A stretch of 38,194 nt of DNA from a virus (taxonomy: Duplodnaviria > Caudoviricetes): positions 1-38,194 of IMG/VR virus record IMGVR_UViG_3300048901_000032, one strand, 5' to 3'. Below the pieces are notes generated by a model, which saw only the letters and a list, made by a program, of their open reading frames with translations, had not been told where the DNA came from and searched no databases. Shown piece after piece: positions 3,893 through 33,219 of the stretch. The translations under genes and the position numbers were made by a program. Numbering within the stretch: position 1 is the stretch's first letter; every line of letters starts with the position of its first letter.

Positions 3893-3921
3893 TTGCAGAA
3901 CCTTGGGCGCGGGTGTAGGCT
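3893..3921 (+). promoter_or_regulatory. Rightward sigma70-like early promoter
   Basis: TTGCAG-N17-TAGGCT, back-to-back with the leftward promoter, upstream of the Cro-like gene. Confidence 0.6.
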
Positions 3922-4623: not shown

Positions 4624-4652
4624 TTGCAGTCCGTTTTCCCCCGGCGTAATGT
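4624..4652 (+). promoter_or_regulatory. Promoter for the replication gene
   Basis: TTGCAG-N17-TAATGT; shares GGCGTAATGT with the promoter at 6184. Confidence 0.6.
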
Positions 4653-12224: not shown

Positions 12225-12427
12225 TGTGCGGGCTTCTGCCTTCGGGCACCGTCCTCGCTGTCCGACGGGATACCGGAACCATGCCGGTATCGTGATGCGC
12301 GTAGGCAGGGGAGTGCCTGATCGCGACGCGCGGCTGTCAGTCTGGGGAGAACGACGGGCCGCAACGAAACACTACACGTTGTGTGGCGGGGTTGCAATGA
12401 CCCCAGATGTGCGGATAGCCTCGCGCA
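12225..12427 (+). ncRNA. Candidate structured non-coding RNA (multi-way junction)
   Basis: Nearly the whole intergenic region pairs into five abutting hairpin arms, including a cUUCGg tetraloop, closed by a terminal helix. I do not recognise a family, and strand is assumed from the operon. Confidence 0.5.
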
Positions 12428-12455: not shown

Positions 12456-12671
12456 ATGAGTAAACCCAAGCTCCCGCCGGCACCGACCATGCCGACGGTG
12501 ATTTCCCCGCAGATCATCGATCAAGCGGCCCTCGATACCCGTAACCGTGAACGTCGTCGCCAGGCCAGCAAGTACGGCCTGAACGCGACGATCCTCGCCG
12601 GTTCCCTGGGCGGGGCGAGTGGCGGCACCGAGCCGCCGACCACGCCGACCAAGTCGCTGCTCGGATCCTGA
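12456..12671 (+). CDS. Small virion-associated protein preceding the portal (T7 gp6.7/7.3-like position)
   Basis: MSKPKLPPAP...RRRQASKYGLNATILAG...KSLLGS; TGATG overlap with the portal. The start could be ATC at 12450. Confidence 0.8.
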   Translation: MSKPKLPPAPTMPTVISPQIIDQAALDTRNRERRRQASKYGLNATILAGSLGGASGGTEPPTTPTKSLLGS

Positions 12672-24178: not shown

Positions 24179-26428
24179 ATGGCGACCGTTACGCGGGTAG
24201 AGGGACCGAGCGTCGCGCCGGACGCATTGCCGGGCGTGCGCCTGACCGCGCATCTGGATCCGAACGCGAGCGCGGGTCTGGAGCGCGGCATCGCCGATCT
24301 GGGCGCCGGCTTCGGGCATTTCGCCCAGGTCGAGCAGGACAAGGCCGATTCCGCGGCGGTGCTCGAGGCCCAGCGCAAGCTCGGCGATTGGGAGCGCAGC
24401 TGGTTCGACCCGAATAACCCGACCGGCGTCTACGCCAGCAAGGGCCGGGACGCGCGCGGTCTGGCCGATGCGGTGGCACCGGACTTCGAGCGGGTGTCGT
24501 CGGAGCTGGCGGGCTCGCTGAAGTCCGAACGTGCGCGCCAGGCGTTCACCGAGCATGCGTACAACGTGCGCGAGTCGGTGCTGAACCGGGTCAACAATTA
24601 CGCGGTCAATGAAAACGACCAGTACGTCGCGGCCGAGTTCAAGGCGTCGCTGGTCAACAACGCCGAGGGCGCGGCGCAGGCGGCGCTTGATGGCCGCTGG
24701 GACGATCAGGCCCGGCTGGTGCGCGATGGCCTGCGCACGATCAACGCGCAGGCGGTGGTGGCCGGGCAATCGCCGGAAGTGACACATACCCAGACCGACG
24801 CGTTCCTGTCGAGCGTGCACGCGACCGCGATCAATGGCTTGCTGGCCCGTGGCGAAACCGACCGGGCGATGGCGTATTTCAATGCCAACGCCGAGGACAT
24901 CTCGGCGAGCGCGGCCGGCGACCTGATGGCGAAGATGAAGCCGCTCCTGGAAGCCAAGGCGGCCTACGACTTCGTCGACGGCGTGCAGTCGGGCAACGTC
25001 ACCGCCGAAAGCACGGGCGCGCACCTGACGCTCGACCAGCTGTGGCCGGCGCAGACGCACCAGGAGTCGCCGACCGGCCAGTACAAGGATGGCCGGCTCG
25101 TCGTGTCGCCGAAGGGGGCCGTGGGTGGTGCCCAGGTCATGCCGGACACCGGGCCGGTGGCGGCCAAGATGGCGGGCGTGCCGTGGGATGCGGAGCTGTT
25201 CAATTACCAGCCGAGCAAGGCCAACCCGGACCCGGTGATGGAAGCCAAGGCCGCGGCCTACAACGACCTGCTGGGCAAGAGCTACATGCAGGCGCAGCTG
25301 ATCACCTTCGGCTCGGCGCCGTTGGCGCTGGCCGCGTACAACGCCGGTCCGGGCCGGGTCTTTGCCTGGCTCAAGCAGTACGGCGATCCCCGCAAGGGCG
25401 AGATCACGACGGCCGAGTGGGTGGCGAAAATCCCGGTGTCGGAAACCCGGAACTATGTGCAGACGATCAGCGCGCGCGCCGGTGCGCCGGTCGACACCGC
25501 CGTGACGGCGGGTCCGGGGCCGAATGCTTCGCTGTCCGACCAGTTGGCCGCGACCAAGGGCTTTCCCGTGGAGATGCGGTCGAAGATTGACGGCCTGATC
25601 ATCCAGCGCCATAGCGTGCAGGAGCAGGACCGGCAGGATGCCGACCGCCAGGCGCAGCAGGCGATCTTCGCGGCGGTCAACACGATGGACCCGCGCGGCA
25701 ACCTGATCAGCGCGCTGTCGCCGGACCAGTACGCGTTCGCGGCCCAGCACAATCAGCTGCTCGACCTGCAGGAAATCCTCAACAAGCGCGCCGGCGGCCA
25801 GCCGATCGTGTCGGACTTCGATACGCTGTCGTCGTTCCAGCAGGTGATTGATCGCGCGGCGGTGAGTCCGGCGGCGCGAGCGGGCTTGGCCACGCTCAAT
25901 CCCTACGATCCGAAGCTGACCCTGGCGCCGGAGGATCGGGCCAAGCTGCAGCAGCAGATCAACGTCCTGCAGTCCAAGGACGAGAAGAAGCTGGCGGTCG
26001 CAGCCTCCGAGGCGGAAGTGTCGCGGGTGATCACGCAATACCGCGTGCAGCAGCTCAAGCTGACCGACGATGCGATCAAGTCCAGCAACGACGCGCCGGA
26101 CAGCCCGCGTGCGCAGGCGATCGCGTTCGATCAAAGCATGCGGACCTGGGTCAGCCAGTTCGCGTCCGCCAATGGTCGGCAACCGACCTACACCGAGGTC
26201 ACCAAGCAGGCCGATGCGCTGACCTTCTCGGTGCCGGTCGTCAAGAAGGGCTGGGTCTGGGATAGCGAAACCACGAAGCCGGCGCTGGCGGTGAAGTCGA
26301 TCGACGACATTCCGCCCCGCTTCCGGACCGACATCACGCAGCGCCTGGCCGCCGGGGGCTATCCGCCCACCGAGGCTAATGTCCTGCGCTACTACAAGGA
26401 CGGCGTCGCACAGGGCCTGTTCAAATGA
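24179..26428 (+). CDS. Ejection protein with a lytic transglycosylase (SLT) domain
   Basis: QES...SPKGAVGGAQVMPDT...ALAAYNAGPGRV...IPVSETRNYV within a long helical protein. Confidence 0.9.
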   Translation: MATVTRVEGPSVAPDALPGVRLTAHLDPNASAGLERGIADLGAGFGHFAQVEQDKADSAAVLEAQRKLGDWERSWFDPNNPTGVYASKGRDARGLADAVAPDFERVSSELAGSLKSERARQAFTEHAYNVRESVLNRVNNYAVNENDQYVAAEFKASLVNNAEGAAQAALDGRWDDQARLVRDGLRTINAQAVVAGQSPEVTHTQTDAFLSSVHATAINGLLARGETDRAMAYFNANAEDISASAAGDLMAKMKPLLEAKAAYDFVDGVQSGNVTAESTGAHLTLDQLWPAQTHQESPTGQYKDGRLVVSPKGAVGGAQVMPDTGPVAAKMAGVPWDAELFNYQPSKANPDPVMEAKAAAYNDLLGKSYMQAQLITFGSAPLALAAYNAGPGRVFAWLKQYGDPRKGEITTAEWVAKIPVSETRNYVQTISARAGAPVDTAVTAGPGPNASLSDQLAATKGFPVEMRSKIDGLIIQRHSVQEQDRQDADRQAQQAIFAAVNTMDPRGNLISALSPDQYAFAAQHNQLLDLQEILNKRAGGQPIVSDFDTLSSFQQVIDRAAVSPAARAGLATLNPYDPKLTLAPEDRAKLQQQINVLQSKDEKKLAVAASEAEVSRVITQYRVQQLKLTDDAIKSSNDAPDSPRAQAIAFDQSMRTWVSQFASANGRQPTYTEVTKQADALTFSVPVVKKGWVWDSETTKPALAVKSIDDIPPRFRTDITQRLAAGGYPPTEANVLRYYKDGVAQGLFK

Positions 26429-29400
26429 GCGGACCCGATCCGATCCTCGACAGCTGGGAAGCGACGCCGCTGGCGAAAACCGCGGCGAATGACGACCCGG
26501 TGCTGTCGCAATGGAACAACGACACCCAGCGGGCGCTGGGCACGGGCCTGGTGCACGCCGAGCAGTTCACGCCGGACGAGTACGCGACCGCGCGCAAGGT
26601 CGCGCCGGCGGCAGCGGTGCCGGTCGATGTCGCGGCACGTAATCCCGACATCGCCAACCGGCGCGCGACCACGGCCCGGCTCGATGATCTGGCGACGCAG
26701 GATCCGCGCATTGCCTCCTGGCTCGCGGCCGATCCGGCCCACGTCACGCTCGGACAAAACTCGATCGAGCACCTGTCCTTGCTCGACAAGGTCATGGGCT
26801 GGGGCGGCGATGTCCTGCAGGCCAGTGCGACGGCGATGGCGAACCAGGCCGAGGCGATGGTCAACGACACGCCGAGTGACTACAACACGCCGGCGGTGGA
26901 TCGGGCGGGCGAGTTGTTTGCGACCCGCGGCGCCGAGATTGCGGCCAACACGCAATACAAGGCGGCGGACCGGGTCATCGGCGCCGTCGGTGAAAATAAC
27001 CTCAAGAATGGCATTGCGCAATACCAGCAGGTCGCCAACACGCTGCGCACGCAAGGCCACACCACGCTGGCGGATATCGCGCAGCGGCAGGCCGACTTCT
27101 GGCAGGGCTTCCTGGAACTGCGCAACGTCGCCGATGGTGCCGAGGCCGAGATCAATGCACGCCGGCAGGAACTGGCGGCCGGGCTCACCCGCACCGATCC
27201 CGAGTACTACACGCAGATGGCGGCGACGTCGGCGTTCGATTCGGTGGCGGCCTTGGCGACCGGCGGCGCGGCGCTCGAGGCGGGCGCGTCCACCAAGGCG
27301 GCCACGTGGCTGGCGTCCGGAACCGCGGGGGTGTCGACCTACCTGCAGGCGTACCAGCAGGCGCGCGATGAAGGGCACGACCCGGATATCGCCGATTACA
27401 CGGCGACCGCGCAGGGCGCGATTGAAATCCTGGGCGAGAAGTTCGGGCTGGGCAAAGTGTTCGGCGAAGCCGGCACGGTCGGTCGGCGTGCGCTGTCGAC
27501 GATTGGTCGCGAGGCCGGCAGCGAAGCCGCGACGCAATTCGGGCAAACGGTGTCGGATGCGCTGATCACCGGCAAGCCGATCGATGTCGGCGACCTGGCG
27601 GGTCAGACGCTGGACGCGGCGGTCGTGGGCGGGTTGCTGGGCGGACCGGAAGCGGTGCTCGGTACGCATCCCCCGTCGGTGGCGGATAGGGAACGGGCGC
27701 GCGCGGAGCTGGACCGTATCCTGCGTTCGGCCAATGGGCACGCGCAACTGTCGGGCCTGCAGGGCATCGTGGCCGATATGGACATGGCGAACCATTCGCC
27801 GGAAGCCACGGCCGCGGCGCTGCAACACCTGGCCGACAATGGCGGCCCGACGCATGTTTACGTCGACGCGGCGCAGTTCCGCGAGCTCTACCAAACCGAC
27901 CAGGTCAACCCGGCCACGGTGGCGACGCAGCTGACCGGTGACCCGGCGGCGTACCCGATGGCGCTGGCCACGGGCGGGGATATCGCGATCCCGATCGCGC
28001 AGTACCTGCAGGTCGTGTCCCGCTCCAAGCAGGGCGAGGCGATGGCGCAGCACGCGCGCTTGGCCGCGGACCAGCTCTCGCCGGCGGAACTGGCGAAATT
28101 CGAGCCGCAGCATTTCATCGATGCCGTGTTCGGCGCCGGCGCGGCGGACCGGGCGAAAGCCTCAACCGAGCAGCAGGCGGACGAGTCGGCGATCCGCGAC
28201 GATGTCCAGGGGCAGCTGCAGGCGGCGGGCATCGAGCCGGGGGCTGCATCGCGCTACGCGGCTCTGTACGGGGCCGTGTTCCGGACCCTGTCCCAACGCT
28301 CAGGCCAGAGTGCGATGTCGCTGTGGCAACGCTACGGTTTGACGGTAAAGCGCACTACGGCGGGCACGCAGCTGCTGTCGAAGAACACCGGCGTCGACCT
28401 GGTGCTGGACCCGTACATCGACGATGTCCTCCAGCGCGGCCTCGAAAACACGGCACCCCCGCCAAAAAGTCAGACGCTGATCGATGCGGTGATCCAGGCC
28501 GGCGGCATTACTCCCGACTCCGTCGGGGCTGGCGATATCCGGTCGCAGGGGGGGCAGAATCACATCGGCCTGTTCAACAAGGCCGGCATGACCGCCGAAC
28601 GGATGGGCGAGCATTTGGCGTCCACTGATTCGCCGTGGTCGCACCATTTCACGACGAAGGACGAATACGGCCGGCCCGATCTCAACGAGTTCCTCGCCAA
28701 ACTGACCGACGCGCTGCAGGGCACCGGGCCCGTGTTGGTCGATCCCGCGCTCGCCGAGTTCGCCGACCGACGTGATCAGGTGCAGGCCGTCCTGCGCGAT
28801 TATTCCATCGCCCACGGCGTCGACCCGCAGTTGCTGTCCCGTCCCGAGCTGCGTCGAATTGTCGAGGCCGGGCTCGGTTCGGAGTTCTTGCAATCGACCC
28901 GTGATGGGTCTAAGGTGACCCCAAATGTACAAGCCGAACGCCAACGTTTCGACGCAGCCTCCCTCGAAAACCTGGGAGCAGTTGGTGGCCGAGTACCCGC
29001 GGCTGGCTGGGTGGCGGGAACCACCGTCCGAGACGCCAGCGGAAACCCCGGCGTTGTCCACCGCGGCTCCCGCGCCGGCACCACGTCCGTCGAAGCCTTC
29101 GGCCAGGCAGGCACGGCGACCGGTCATCCATCTGCAGCGTTAGGCGTCTGGTTTTCCGACGCATCCGGTGACGCCGCGCGCTATGGCGTGGTCGGTGATT
29201 ATCATCTTGACCTGCGCAATCCGAAAATCTACGACGCTAACGAAGAGTTGCCGCTGCTCGACACGCCGGAGGAAGCCCTGGCGCTGCGCAAGACGTTGGA
29301 GGCGCAAGGCCACGACGGCATCGTGCTCGACTTCTCCGATGTCGGCGGCCCGAAGCAGTACGTGGCGTTCCGGCCCGAGCAGGTCATTCCGCGACCGCGT

Positions 29401-32400
29401 GAGCTGTTTCAGGGCGCATCGCCGACCTTCAAGTCCGCCCTGGTCGCCACGGTCGAAGCGGCATTGCGTGACGCGGCACTCGGTGGCCTGCCACTGTTCC
29501 AAGGCAAAGGCGAGGTTCCACGTGGATCGATCCAGATCGGCCACGACCGGACGATGCGGATTAACCTGTTCGAGAAGGCCAACCTGTCGACCTTCCTGCA
29601 TGAGTCCGGGCACTTCTTCCTGGAGGTGCTGGGCGACTTGGCGGAATCGGCAGATGCGCCGGCGGGCATTCGCGAGGACTACCAGCGGGTGCTGACCTGG
29701 TTCGGTGTCGCCGATCGCAGTCAGATCGGGACCGAGCAACACGAACAATTCGCGCGCGGCTTCGAGGCGTACCTGCGCGAGGGCAAGGCGCCGAGTCCGG
29801 AGCTGACCTCGATCTTCGGGCGCTTCCGCGCCTGGCTGACTTCGGTCTACCGGCAGCTGTCGCAGTTGAACGTGCACCTGACCGACGAGGTGCGCGGCGT
29901 GTTTGATCGGCTGATTGCCACCGACGAGGAGATCGAGGCGGCGCAGGTGCGGCAAGGCTACGCCGGGCTTGATGGTGCGGCGCTGGGCCTGAGTCCGGAG
30001 CAGATGGCGACCTACGGCGACATGCTGTCGGCGGCGACGGAAGCGGCGCGGGCGGACGTGCTCGGGAAACTGCTCCGGGCGCAGCAGCGCGAGTCGCAGG
30101 CGTTCTGGCGGGAGGAAGTCGCGGCGGCCAAGGTCGGCATCCTGGCCGAGCTCGATGCCATGCCCGTGTACCGCGCGCTGTCGATCCTGCGTCGGGGCGT
30201 CTTGCCGGACGGTTCGGCCTCGCCAGTCGGGGACGCCAAGCTCGACCGCGATTCGCTGGTTGCCATTTACGGCAAGGCATTTGTGCAGAAGCGATTGGTC
30301 GGACTGTACCGGGTCACCGGCGGCGTCGACGCCGAGGTGCTGGCGCTGCAGCTCGGCTTTGCCAATGGCAACGCGCTGGTGCAGGCGCTGGCCTCGGCGA
30401 AACCGAAGGCGGCGCTGGCGGAGGCGATGGCGCGGCAGCAGGTCGGCGAGCGGCATCCGGATCCGATGACCGACGGTTCGCTGGGCGAGGAAGCGATGGC
30501 GGCGGTGCATGGCCGGCAGCGTATGGCGGTGCTGGACTTCGAGCTCAAAGCGTTGGCCGCGAAGGCGAATCAGGGCACCCCCAAGGCCCGTATCCTGCAG
30601 GCGGTTGCGGCATTCCAGATCGGTAACCAGGTCGTGTCGGCGATCAAGGCCAACGAGTATCTGATTGCCGAACGCAAGGCGGCGCGCACGGCAGCGGTCG
30701 CACTGGCTGGCGGCAAGTACGCCGAGGCATTCGTGGCGAAACGGGCGCAGGCGTTGAATGCGGCGCTGTACCGGGCCGCGCTCGAGGCCAAGGCCGATGC
30801 CGCGAAGGTGCAAGCCTACGCGCTGAAGCTGTCGAAGCCGAAAGCGCGCGCGGCGATCGGCAAGGCCGGCGGCACCTGGCTCGAACAGATCGACGCCATC
30901 CTCGGCCAGTATTCCTTTGCCCGCCTGTCCAACCTCGAGGCAACGCGACGGGCGGCGGTGGCCACGGCCCTGCAGGCGCAGGTCGATGCCGGCACGCTGT
31001 CCCTGCCGGCCCACGTCCTGGCCGCGATCTCCGGGGATATCCGGACCCGCTGGAATGCCCTCACGGTCGACCAGTTGCGCGGGGTAAGCGATACCTTGAA
31101 GCAGCTGGCCTATCAGGCGCGCGAGGCCAACAAGCTGCGCCTGGGCGAACTGGCCGAGGATCGGGCCGAGGTCGATGCCGCGGTAGCGGGCTCGATCCTG
31201 GGCGCCAACCGGACCCTGCCGGCCAATACTGGCGACCGGACCCGCGGCGAGAAGTTGCGGGAAATCTGGGGCCAAGGCCGGGCGATCCAGGGCACGGCGT
31301 CGGACCTGGCGCGCGAGCTCGACGGTTTCGTCGACGGTGGTCCGGTCTGGACGCACACGGTCGGCATCATCCGGACGGCGATGAACGAGCACGTCACGCC
31401 GGCCATGAATGCGGCCCAGCAGGCGCTGGCGGACATCTACGGGCGGCACTACACCAAGGACGAGATTCGCGCCTTCGACCAGGCGCAGGCGTTCGACGGC
31501 ATCGTCGGCCTGTGGAGCAAGCAGCGGCGCTTGTCGCTGGCGCTCAATTGGGGCAATGCCGGCAACCGCGAGGCGCTACTGACGCAGGCCAAGAACCGGC
31601 TGTCTCCGGAGCAGGTCGCGCTGCTGCTCAATACGTTGGACGCGCGGGATTGGGCGTTCGTGCAGGACATCGCGGCGCACATCGATTCGTACTGGCCGGC
31701 GGCGCGGGACGTGGCGAAGCGCAAGAACGGCCTGGCGCCGGAGAAGGTGGTCGGCGAACCGTTCACCATCACCACGGTCGACGGGCAAACCCTGACGCTG
31801 CCGGGCTGGTACTACCCGCTGAAGTATTCCGATTCGGTCAAGTCGATGCGCGACGAGGCCGAGGACTATTACAACGCGATCCGGACCGGGCGCACGGGCG
31901 CGGCCAAGGTCAAGGCTGGGAGCCTGATCGAGCGCGTCGGTTCCGGCGGTCGCTCGGTGCGCCTGGACCTAGGCGTGATGCAGACGCATATCCGCGACAC
32001 GATCCGGATCATTCACCTGTCGGAACCGATCAACTACGTGCACGGCGTCCTGCAGGGCTCGGCGTTCTCCGCGGCGGCGGACGACACGGGCCTGGGCGAG
32101 CATGTCCGGGCGCTGGAGCTGTGGCTGAAGGACGTGGCGGCCGGCGAGATTGCCCCACGGGTGTTCCACGAACGCTTCGCGCGCGCGGTCCGGCAGAACT
32201 TCACGGCGTCGGTGCTGACCTATAAAGTCTCGTCGGCGGCGCTGCAGGTCACCGGCATTGCCCAGACCGGTGTCGTGCTGGGCTGGAAAAACACCTTTGC
32301 GGGCGTCGCGCAGTACCTGCGCCGGCCGCTGGCGATGACCCGCTACGTGCACGCGGCGAGCCCGTACATGACCCAGCGCGCGGTGCAACTGGTCGAGCAG

Positions 32401-33219
32401 GTCCAGCAGATTCACGACGCACAGGCCGGTCGCTGGAAGGCGGGGCATGCGGCGATGATCCGCTGGGGCTATTTCATGATGGGCCGGGTGCAGATGACGG
32501 TCGACGTCGCGACCTGGTTGGGCGCGGAACAGAAGGGCATGGCCCTGTTCGACAACGACGTCGTGAAGGCCCGCGCTTATGCCGACGACATCGTGACCCG
32601 CGCGCAGGGTTCGGGCGAGTTCTGGGACAAGACGCCGCTGCAACGGGGCACCTTGTCCGAGGGCGTGCGCCAGAACGAGTACATCAAGGCCGCGACCATG
32701 CTCGGCGGCTACATGCTCGCGAAGGGCAACGCCGCCTATGAGCTGACCCGGCAGACCAATTTCCGCAGCCTGAGTCAGGCGTTGCGGTGGTCCGGCAACA
32801 TGACGTCGCTGTTCGTCATCGAGGGCCTGATTGCCGCGGCGTTGCGTGGCGCCCTGCCCGACGACAAGGACGACGATGGCTGGTTCGACGATGTCGCGCT
32901 GTGGTCGGTCAAGGACGCGGCGACGTCGCTGTTCGGCACCTTGCCGGGCCTGGGCTCAATGTCGGGCAACCTGCGCGGCTACGACTCGAGCGGCCCGATC
33001 GGCGGCTCGCTGACCTTGCTCTACAAGCTGGTCGAGCAGATTCGCCAGGGCGACGCCGACAAGGCGCTGCGCCAGCAGGCGGTGAACCTGACCGGCGTGG
33101 CCACCGGCATTCCCGCCGGACAGATCAACAAGACCCTGGACGCCGTGTCGGCCGAACGCGCGGGCCAGGACGTATCCTTGTACGAGTACGCCACCGGTCC
33201 GCGCCGGCGTCGTCGCTGA
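26425..33219 (+). CDS. Giant polyvalent ejection protein (2264 aa) with ART-like and HExxH zincin-like modules
   Basis: gp16-like position and size; ART-PolyVal-like segment at about 29011-29390 (RDASGNPGVVHRGS...GVWFS...HLDLRNP...GHDGIV...YVAFRPEQV); NLSTFLHESGHF...HEQFARGFEAYLREGKAPS at about 29580-29800. Confidence 0.85.
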   Translation: MSGPDPILDSWEATPLAKTAANDDPVLSQWNNDTQRALGTGLVHAEQFTPDEYATARKVAPAAAVPVDVAARNPDIANRRATTARLDDLATQDPRIASWLAADPAHVTLGQNSIEHLSLLDKVMGWGGDVLQASATAMANQAEAMVNDTPSDYNTPAVDRAGELFATRGAEIAANTQYKAADRVIGAVGENNLKNGIAQYQQVANTLRTQGHTTLADIAQRQADFWQGFLELRNVADGAEAEINARRQELAAGLTRTDPEYYTQMAATSAFDSVAALATGGAALEAGASTKAATWLASGTAGVSTYLQAYQQARDEGHDPDIADYTATAQGAIEILGEKFGLGKVFGEAGTVGRRALSTIGREAGSEAATQFGQTVSDALITGKPIDVGDLAGQTLDAAVVGGLLGGPEAVLGTHPPSVADRERARAELDRILRSANGHAQLSGLQGIVADMDMANHSPEATAAALQHLADNGGPTHVYVDAAQFRELYQTDQVNPATVATQLTGDPAAYPMALATGGDIAIPIAQYLQVVSRSKQGEAMAQHARLAADQLSPAELAKFEPQHFIDAVFGAGAADRAKASTEQQADESAIRDDVQGQLQAAGIEPGAASRYAALYGAVFRTLSQRSGQSAMSLWQRYGLTVKRTTAGTQLLSKNTGVDLVLDPYIDDVLQRGLENTAPPPKSQTLIDAVIQAGGITPDSVGAGDIRSQGGQNHIGLFNKAGMTAERMGEHLASTDSPWSHHFTTKDEYGRPDLNEFLAKLTDALQGTGPVLVDPALAEFADRRDQVQAVLRDYSIAHGVDPQLLSRPELRRIVEAGLGSEFLQSTRDGSKVTPNVQAERQRFDAASLENLGAVGGRVPAAGWVAGTTVRDASGNPGVVHRGSRAGTTSVEAFGQAGTATGHPSAALGVWFSDASGDAARYGVVGDYHLDLRNPKIYDANEELPLLDTPEEALALRKTLEAQGHDGIVLDFSDVGGPKQYVAFRPEQVIPRPRELFQGASPTFKSALVATVEAALRDAALGGLPLFQGKGEVPRGSIQIGHDRTMRINLFEKANLSTFLHESGHFFLEVLGDLAESADAPAGIREDYQRVLTWFGVADRSQIGTEQHEQFARGFEAYLREGKAPSPELTSIFGRFRAWLTSVYRQLSQLNVHLTDEVRGVFDRLIATDEEIEAAQVRQGYAGLDGAALGLSPEQMATYGDMLSAATEAARADVLGKLLRAQQRESQAFWREEVAAAKVGILAELDAMPVYRALSILRRGVLPDGSASPVGDAKLDRDSLVAIYGKAFVQKRLVGLYRVTGGVDAEVLALQLGFANGNALVQALASAKPKAALAEAMARQQVGERHPDPMTDGSLGEEAMAAVHGRQRMAVLDFELKALAAKANQGTPKARILQAVAAFQIGNQVVSAIKANEYLIAERKAARTAAVALAGGKYAEAFVAKRAQALNAALYRAALEAKADAAKVQAYALKLSKPKARAAIGKAGGTWLEQIDAILGQYSFARLSNLEATRRAAVATALQAQVDAGTLSLPAHVLAAISGDIRTRWNALTVDQLRGVSDTLKQLAYQAREANKLRLGELAEDRAEVDAAVAGSILGANRTLPANTGDRTRGEKLREIWGQGRAIQGTASDLARELDGFVDGGPVWTHTVGIIRTAMNEHVTPAMNAAQQALADIYGRHYTKDEIRAFDQAQAFDGIVGLWSKQRRLSLALNWGNAGNREALLTQAKNRLSPEQVALLLNTLDARDWAFVQDIAAHIDSYWPAARDVAKRKNGLAPEKVVGEPFTITTVDGQTLTLPGWYYPLKYSDSVKSMRDEAEDYYNAIRTGRTGAAKVKAGSLIERVGSGGRSVRLDLGVMQTHIRDTIRIIHLSEPINYVHGVLQGSAFSAAADDTGLGEHVRALELWLKDVAAGEIAPRVFHERFARAVRQNFTASVLTYKVSSAALQVTGIAQTGVVLGWKNTFAGVAQYLRRPLAMTRYVHAASPYMTQRAVQLVEQVQQIHDAQAGRWKAGHAAMIRWGYFMMGRVQMTVDVATWLGAEQKGMALFDNDVVKARAYADDIVTRAQGSGEFWDKTPLQRGTLSEGVRQNEYIKAATMLGGYMLAKGNAAYELTRQTNFRSLSQALRWSGNMTSLFVIEGLIAAALRGALPDDKDDDGWFDDVALWSVKDAATSLFGTLPGLGSMSGNLRGYDSSGPIGGSLTLLYKLVEQIRQGDADKALRQQAVNLTGVATGIPAGQINKTLDAVSAERAGQDVSLYEYATGPRRRRR
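28888..28916 (+). promoter_or_regulatory. Candidate intragenic promoter with a palindromic spacer
   Basis: TTGCAA-N17-TAAGGT; spacer contains GACCC-N5-GGGTC; same style as the phage's intergenic promoters. Confidence 0.5.
28925..29143 (+). CDS. Candidate overprinted small protein (72 aa, +1 frame, nested in the ejection gene)
   Basis: ATG lies 8 nt after TAAGGT; the first ~26 codons are G/C-ending in this frame while the host frame locally shifts to A/T-ending codons. Confidence 0.5.
   Translation: MYKPNANVSTQPPSKTWEQLVAEYPRLAGWREPPSETPAETPALSTAAPAPAPRPSKPSARQARRPVIHLQR

Follow-up and report, generated by a model that had tools for sequence, protein, structure and literature searches.

The giant virion-protein gene of the phage studied here very likely holds a second, real gene within it, a 72-aa reading frame in the +1 register at the start of an ADP-ribosyltransferase (ART)-like module. 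Comparison with homologous loci indicates that this nested gene is overprinted, with a start and a stop kept beyond the constraint of the giant protein, selection on the amino acids of the +1 frame and predicted expression signals of its own. An overprinted peptide gene with its own signals, travelling with the ART cassette, had been proposed in an earlier sequence-only reading of this DNA, and the comparison of homologues strongly supports that proposal.

The giant ejection-protein gene and its nested reading frame

The window, meaning the whole 38,194-nt stretch of DNA that was analysed, is a 38 kb phage record with a GC content of 65%. Its structural module is of the podophage type and resembles those of BPP-1 and Xanthomonas CP2, with a portal, a GP7 capsid protein, Bbp16 and an SLT-bearing ejection protein. 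No integrase was identified among the ORFs scanned in the window. Pfam places an LPD22 domain at the N-terminus of the giant protein (aa 44–125), and comparison with cultured relatives matches its N- and C-terminal parts and leaves the middle mostly unmatched. The features discussed below are as follows.

26425..33219, + strand: giant gene for a 2264-aa polyvalent ejection (internal virion) protein, with homology to Bbp10 of BPP-1 and ORF24 of Xanthomonas CP2
28888..28893, + strand: −35-like hexamer TTGCAA, read as Leu-Gln codons in the giant gene; promoter-like sites lie at the same place in homologues
28896..28910, no strand: GACCC-N5-GGGTC palindrome inside the promoter spacer; chance level, unconserved
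28911..28917, + strand: −10-like hexamer TAAGGT (28911–28916) with an overlapping SD-like AGGTG, from the sequence
28925..29143, + strand: predicted nested gene, 72 aa, in the +1 frame of 26425–33219, from the ORF and its homologues
28951..29031, + strand: N-terminal extension of the ART domain in the giant-gene frame, about aa 843–869, from pLDDT of 88–96 in 10-residue blocks over model residues 21–50
28967..29011, + strand: conserved peptide core KTWEQLVAEYPRLAG (K15–G29), from motif conservation, with an amphipathic helix predicted at residues 17–23
29032..29385, + strand: ART-PolyVal-like domain of an Arg-type clade, from Pfam, an AlphaFold model and structural matches

Motifs of the form [LF][FLY]Q[SGT] lie at module borders of the giant gene, at aa 488, 821, 994 and 1024 (about nt 27886, 28885, 29404 and 29494), and in homologues too, and could serve in processing or recombination. 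The −35 box is spelled by the motif at aa 821.

Signals and codon usage at the nested start

The order at the site is TTGCAA, a 17-nt spacer, TAAGGT, 8 nt and the ATG at 28925. The promoter-like hexamers, spacer and ATG lie exactly where the sequence-only reading had put them (TTGCAA 28888–28893, TAAGGT 28911–28916), the 72-aa +1-frame ORF it described is present at 28925–29143, and the two intergenic promoters to which it likened the site are found as TTGCAG-17-TAGGCT at 3893 and TTGCAG-17-TAATGT at 4624. It had also described the ORF as overlapping the start of an ART-like domain, as is the case for an ORF that runs to 29143 and a sub-threshold Pfam ART-PolyVal match at aa 870–987. Translation of the nested gene is predicted to start either leaderless, from the internal promoter, or SD-led on a long late mRNA.

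Two further proposals of that reading survived in part. A switch in codon bias had been described, from the giant-gene frame to the +1 frame, and the loss in the giant-gene frame is real, with GC3 falling to 20 of 40 codons at aa 822–861 against 0.85 gene-wide (binomial P 2e-7); the lowest 40-codon window of the whole gene (0.50) starts at aa 818. The supposed GC3 gain of the +1 frame was rejected, as it equals the GC1 of the giant gene, which at 0.76 against a gene mean of 0.70 is reached by 14% of equal windows. The GACCC-N5-GGGTC palindrome is likewise present, and its interpretation as an operator was dropped: 32% of random 60-mers from the giant gene contain such a palindrome, and those in 12 of the 28 upstream regions compared differ in sequence. 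A conserved operator, as expected of type II TA-style autoregulation, was thus not found in these 28 regions, where palindromes (12/28) stand against a background of 32%. A second, milder GC3 dip occurs in the giant gene at aa 1006–1035.

Taken alone the nested promoter is unremarkable; it fails a strict scan and ranks 25th of the 53 sites above 5 bits in the window, on an approximate matrix, and the case for the nested gene therefore rests on homologues. The pattern TTGCAR-17-TARKBT, picked after the sites were seen, occurs four times in the window with 0.02 expected. The TAG that ends the nested ORF derives from the only TTA codon of the giant gene (aa 906), one of 216 Leu codons. The N-terminal extension of the ART domain is predicted to be folded, so that 28951..29031 is likely coding in both frames. 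DNA contigs from other sequencing runs are identical across the site, with no variation, and no RNA dataset containing it was listed among the sequencing runs.

Several observations concern the surrounding regulation. The sequence TTGCAAT(C)GACCCnnGATG is common to 28888–28906 and to 12392–12409, a promoter-like site in the gap preceding the head genes, and this post hoc pattern has two matches with 0.01 expected; the nested promoter may thus be regulated together with the structural operon. On the minus strand, a divergent TTGCAA-17-TAGTGT sequence overlaps the site at 12392. Between the terminase and portal genes, at about 12457–12671, there is a short gene-like stretch that has an SD. The cassette itself holds two antisense, minus-strand promoter-like sites, near 28952 and 29227 (7.4 and 6.9 bits).

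The peptide family is without annotation in the resources searched. Pfam, PHROGs, PADLOC, NCBIfam and the PDB sequences returned blank or chance-level matches, with no Pfam antitoxin or DNA-binding family among them, and in the ESM Atlas the window peptide had no usable match and the homologue P0027 matched unnamed clusters only. An AF2 model of the 72-aa peptide gave a single short helix with a pTM of 0.25. Co-folding of peptide residues 1–45 with the ART domain scored 0.41 against 0.34 for the control and was counted neither for nor against binding.

Conservation of the nested gene in an Arg-type clade of ART modules

In protein searches, many proteins of giant or medium size proved to carry related ART modules; one search gave 18 matches, and a wider one was taken to the best 150 of 367 matches at E<=0.001. 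Locus DNA was retained for 80 of 118 loci. From these, 76 distinct domains were anchored on the Arg or His of strand 1, 14 anchorless matches having been dropped, and were divided into 32 of an Arg-type clade and 44 canonical ones; removal of the truncated L013 and of near-duplicates left 28 clade loci and 42 control domains, a few of the control anchors being visibly misplaced (e.g. L075, L082). The giant-gene frames of the clade span about 700 to over 3,400 codons at a GC of 0.40–0.70. The first direct scans revealed no close relatives of the cassette and, among cultured phages, just two distant ARTs. Expected values come from synonymous shuffles that hold the giant protein and its codon usage fixed, and the counts treat loci as independent of shared descent.

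Over the start of the module, 26 of 28 clade loci have an uninterrupted +1 frame (18.9 expected), as do 16 of 42 canonical His-type ones (19.0 expected). An ATG-started +1 ORF was found in 25 of the 28, against 10.0 expected, with canonical modules at 8/42 against 6.4; the +1 ORF of L020 starts with GTG. The stop is TAA or TAG in 25/28 clade loci (8.2 expected) and is built from xTA codons of the giant gene. Within the clade, GC3 of the giant gene drops by about 0.26, confined to codons −60 to −15, and the corresponding drop in canonical loci is 0.02–0.06.

Expression signals follow the same division. Two loci too close to a contig end (L036, L076) were skipped in the signal test, leaving 27 clade and 41 control loci. 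An SD of at least 5 nt precedes the start in 18/27 clade loci (2.1 expected) and in 1/41 controls, and a promoter of at least 6 bits occurs in 10/27 (0.6 expected) and 1/41, under a matrix of approximate frequencies. Three homologues look leaderless like the window, with the −10 box 7 nt ahead of the start (L034, L028, L015), and four have a promoter, a 20–23-nt gap and an SD (L019, L038, L039, L047).

The peptide motif in the +1 frame is under selection. In a leave-one-out profile test, from which L032 and L044 were omitted, 22 of 26 loci scored at p<=0.05 against shuffles, compared with 1 of 26 when a stretch farther downstream served as the control, and the window peptide reached 17.0 bits against −5.7 ± 7.9 in its shuffles. 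The four loci that failed (L040, L043, L045, L047) each have an SD-ATG ORF. The motif reads K(29/30)-[TS]-[FLWY]-x-[QE]-L-[LAV]-x-E(25/30)-x-P...G, or K[TS]xxQLxxExP in short form, with Ala at the Glu column in 3 of 30 sequences. Six such peptides had already been called independently by gene callers. A profile of the core peptide, run over 97 loci (18,311 six-frame segments, E<0.02), matched ART-clade loci and one unrelated ORF, in L016; this match and those in L104–L106 were rejected as family members, being chance matches inside unrelated long ORFs.

No such ORF lies at the module start of the canonical ART-PolyVal modules (42 control domains), nor is the nested ORF present in the giant genes of five cultured phages, CP2, JUN5, SR18, Carin1 and Bolivar; in four of these five, Pfam gave at most a canonical ART-PolyVal, in SR18. 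Loss of the ATG, stops in the +1 frame and loss of the motif, the sequence patterns that would speak against the gene, were not what the homologues contained.

The ART-like module

The window module matches the Pfam ART-PolyVal profile at aa 870–987 with an E value of 1e-4 and 23.6 bits, below the cut-off of 31.2, and another module of the Arg-type clade, that of L044, scores 31.4 bits. The AlphaFold model of the domain has a pLDDT of 88. Its best structural matches are mostly PARP-type and other ART folds and are middling (Foldseek E about 1e-3), the top one having a Z of 7.2 and an rmsd of 5.3 over 135 aligned residues. By these models, the module is an ART fold within a polyvalent phage protein, alongside LPD22.

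Its residues set the clade apart. The window module has R880 in strand 1, W909, Y920 and D964, with Q978 where canonical members often carry Glu. Strand 1 carries Arg in all 28 clade loci and in 117 of 118 protein matches, and His in 37 of 42 controls. The Glu of strand 5, before the last-strand aromatic, is found in none of 27 clade loci (His in 15, Gln in 3, Asp in 3) and in 16 of 32 parsed canonical members. ART-PolyVal (PF18760) of phage polyvalent proteins is described as H-Y-D in the main text of Iyer et al. 2017 (PMC5512222). The clade has Arg for the strand-1 His of that signature, and the window has Trp909 for the strand-2 Tyr; the Asp of a G[HYF]D motif, which may or may not be the strand-5 Asp of PMC5512222, is invariant in the clade, and the last-strand position is His, Gln, Asp or Asn. 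The Arg-type clade thus resembles ART-PolyVal in fold and setting and falls outside its H-Y-D definition. With no strand-5 Glu and with Arg instead of His in strand 1, the clade may not be toxic.

A solved structure gave a further match to the ART model: residues 1276–1601 of PDB 9k3a chain B, from the cyanophage A4 pre-ejectosome (Z 7.0). In this solved ejectosome, the segment may represent an ART-like module that has gone unrecognised; a word search of the available text of the ejectosome paper found no mention of ADP-ribosylation or NAD.

Displaced nested genes and further homologues

In L032 and L044 the overlap segment is missing; the nested +1 gene lies farther upstream, 176 and 215 codons ahead of the ART, and has a TATACT −10 box in both loci. 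Profile comparison identifies these displaced genes as homologues of the family (hhalign E 6e-4 and 5e-5; E 4.5e-7 with a wider displaced-type profile), and in a locus-wide HMM scan the gene of L044 passed and that of L032 failed. Read in the giant-gene frame, they resemble the segment directly ahead of the ART in other proteins. A nested small ORF is therefore present in 28/28 clade loci, significantly similar to the family in 24 of them. All loci were gathered via the ART, so the co-occurrence of ART and partner ORF in 28/28 is biased by sampling. By inspection, L108 and L109 have the same pattern. The cassette also occurs in L107, a 133-kb bacterial genome contig (Hahella ganghwensis DSM 17046 per its record) with an integrase 51 kb off, and thus in a likely prophage. 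In L032 (4974) and L044, and in no other loci, an in-frame ATG preceded by an SD (MTPEEEKLF) also lies 25 codons ahead of the ART Arg and could yield a free ART-bearing protein.

Searches with displaced-type peptides found 33 small proteins, about 25 of them displaced-type, which look like complete 49–62-aa proteins or, in several cases, have hydrophobic and probably membrane segments attached (P0181, P0187/P0211, P0192, P0194, P0195); these fusions suggest a membrane-tethered form of the peptide. Scans of viral contigs with the same peptides led back to the same two ART-bearing contigs and three near-identical weak matches in an unrelated ORF. Stand-alone-looking homologues were found in 0 of 401 and 0 of 400 sampled genomes, and in no phage or plasmid record or degenerate DNA motif match, results that are uninformative on absence.

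Across 81 long genes (123,404 codons), an unbiased search for nested reading frames that combine a GC3 dip with an SD or promoter gave 39 matches against 0–2 in codon permutations, a null that ignores regional codon bias; the displaced genes of L032 and L044 were among these matches. Nineteen more +1 candidates in giant virion genes (SD or promoter, GC3 dip) are unrelated to the family, among them L052:907-1116, L079:6402-6587, L090:4057-4263, L017:1648-1857, L008:3127-3303 and L068:3376-3561, and several of the 19 read as helical proteins. Six of these further candidates had no PADLOC matches and two weak NCBIfam matches only.

Possible roles of the peptide

The preferred reading is that the nested peptide acts as a cognate inhibitor of the virion-delivered ART and protects the producer or lysogen, which we consider to have not quite an even chance of being right. 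It is the most economical account of a partner that is small and helical, comes with a host-type promoter of its own, lies upstream of the enzyme and is kept after displacement. The nested gene would encode a two-helix peptide that binds the ART module and keeps it off in the phage-making cell. The internal promoter would be read by host sigma-70 polymerase, in the lysogen or in early infection, and the SD on the long late mRNA may give peptide too. The giant protein would be packaged and then ejected into the next cell minus the peptide, so that, as proposed, the ART acts there on a host target, and in the producer or lysogen the peptide would neutralise newly made or kin-delivered ART. Such a cassette would resemble a promoter-antitoxin-toxin unit that the virion gene reads through in frame, and it is proposed that effector and inhibitor are thereby shuffled together.

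A wider proposal, which we hold more tentatively, is that effector modules of giant virion proteins are self-contained cassettes with a hidden out-of-frame regulator and a private promoter, in which the peptide of the Arg-type ART would bind and control the enzyme, whether to provide immunity or, in the manner of HPF1, to complete a Glu-less active site as a cofactor.

The peptide might instead be an independent early phage protein, such as an anti-defence or exclusion factor, carried along in the same recombining cassette, with its own host target and no binding to the ART. Complete-looking or membrane-fused homologues of the displaced type, sigma-70-like signals suited to an early gene and the unrelated nested +1 ORFs before other modules (from a scan total of 39 matches) all fit such a passenger. 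Nested genes elsewhere in giant genes mean that nesting by itself is no sign of immunity and, together with the sampling by ART, they keep this alternative plausible. However, a nested ORF accompanies the ART in every clade locus and was retained after displacement in L032 and L044, and the viral-contig scans with displaced-type peptides led to ART-bearing contigs or to weak matches in one unrelated ORF. On balance we regard a passenger as unlikely.

HPF1 acts on PARP1 as an activator and adaptor, and a comparable role would have the peptide supply a catalytic acid or recruit substrate, so that the ART, after injection, would become active only when transcription of the phage DNA has begun. 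Suggestive of this are the missing strand-5 Glu of the clade, which 16 of 32 parsed canonical members have, the Glu and Lys that the peptide retains at single columns (25/30 and 29/30) and the PARP-type fold matches at Z of about 7. Against it, the peptide Glu is replaced by Ala in 3 of 30 sequences, the strand-5 Glu is likewise missing from half of the canonical members, and the fold matches are middling (Z <8). An activator thus appears rather improbable.

It is very improbable that the internal transcript serves to make free ART, through a frameshift from the +1 ORF or an internal in-frame start, with the peptide as a mere leader. The SD-led in-frame ATG 25 codons ahead of the strand-1 Arg in L032 and L044 is what such a route would use, but it occurs in only 2/28 loci, the peptide sequence is itself selected, and in these same two loci the peptide ends over 100 codons before the ART. 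Programmed frameshifting and a general in-frame restart were rejected on these counts, slippery heptamers being present in 5/28 clade loci and 10/42 controls.

That there is no second gene, the +1 ORF being a by-product of giant-protein conservation or of a foreign low-GC insert, can practically be set aside: chance alone often leaves the +1 frame of a high-GC gene open (null p_open 0.89 for the window) and the window promoter is weak alone, but shuffles with the giant protein fixed fail to reproduce the motif, SD, promoter and stop bias, the downstream control is flat, and gene callers called homologous peptides independently.

Relation to known systems and significance

Nested phage genes are already known, and embedded out-of-frame genes include lambda Rz1 in Rz and phiX174 E in D. 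The nested gene described here is like these in being a same-strand, shifted-frame gene within a longer gene, under dual coding constraint. Unlike them, it has a promoter-like site and moves with an exchangeable module among different genes.

Virion toxin-immunity pairs are also known. The MuF protein Apk2 and its protein inhibitor IapK provide a precedent, and in the available text of PMC12226406 they consist of a phage protein that is associated with the virion and bears a toxic domain, together with its small cognate inhibitor, in temperate phages, a likeness in which inhibition is, for the present pair, a proposal. There, the immunity genes are separate and 3′ of the toxin gene, whereas the present partner lies out of frame within the larger gene, upstream of or over an internal module. 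ART-PolyVal offers a similar setting: an ART-like module in a giant multi-domain virion protein with LPD22, predicted in the main text of PMC5512222 to be injected with DNA. It differs from the present clade, in which strand 1 carries Arg in 28/28 loci and the window module is sub-cut-off in Pfam. That main text contains none of the terms ‘promoter’, ‘overlap’ and ‘immunity protein’ (0 occurrences of each).

An ART fold is also common to the phage anti-CRISPR AcrIF11 and the RES-type TA toxins MbcT, NatT and ParT (6kyf, Z 6.1; 6fkg, 6.1; 8qnl, 6.9; 6d0h, 5.8), although their identity to the window module is 6–10% (AcrIF11 10%) and the Z scores are middling; among PDB chains, AcrIF11 gave no sequence match. 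The available text on AcrIF11 describes it as target-specific and reliant on the acidic residue D115 (bioRxiv 10.1101/2024.08.26.609590), and such phage ARTs therefore need not have an inhibitor. Within literature titles and abstract openings, no promoter-bearing out-of-frame partner on an exchangeable internal module was found; the supplements of PMC5512222 may list the clade.

Two groups emerge from the analysis, a peptide family so far without annotation and an Arg-type ART clade not previously described, and the cassette has a cultured carrier in the likely prophage of Hahella ganghwensis DSM 17046 (L107). Standard gene callers usually overlook such a nested partner. Polyvalent virion proteins swap enzyme modules that have to be made within the phage's own host, which raises the question of how the phage protects itself from them. 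A nested partner solves the problem of co-inheritance, since it travels with the effector on a single in-frame stretch of DNA. If the proposal is true, a virion weapon would be switched by a gene written inside the weapon's own gene.
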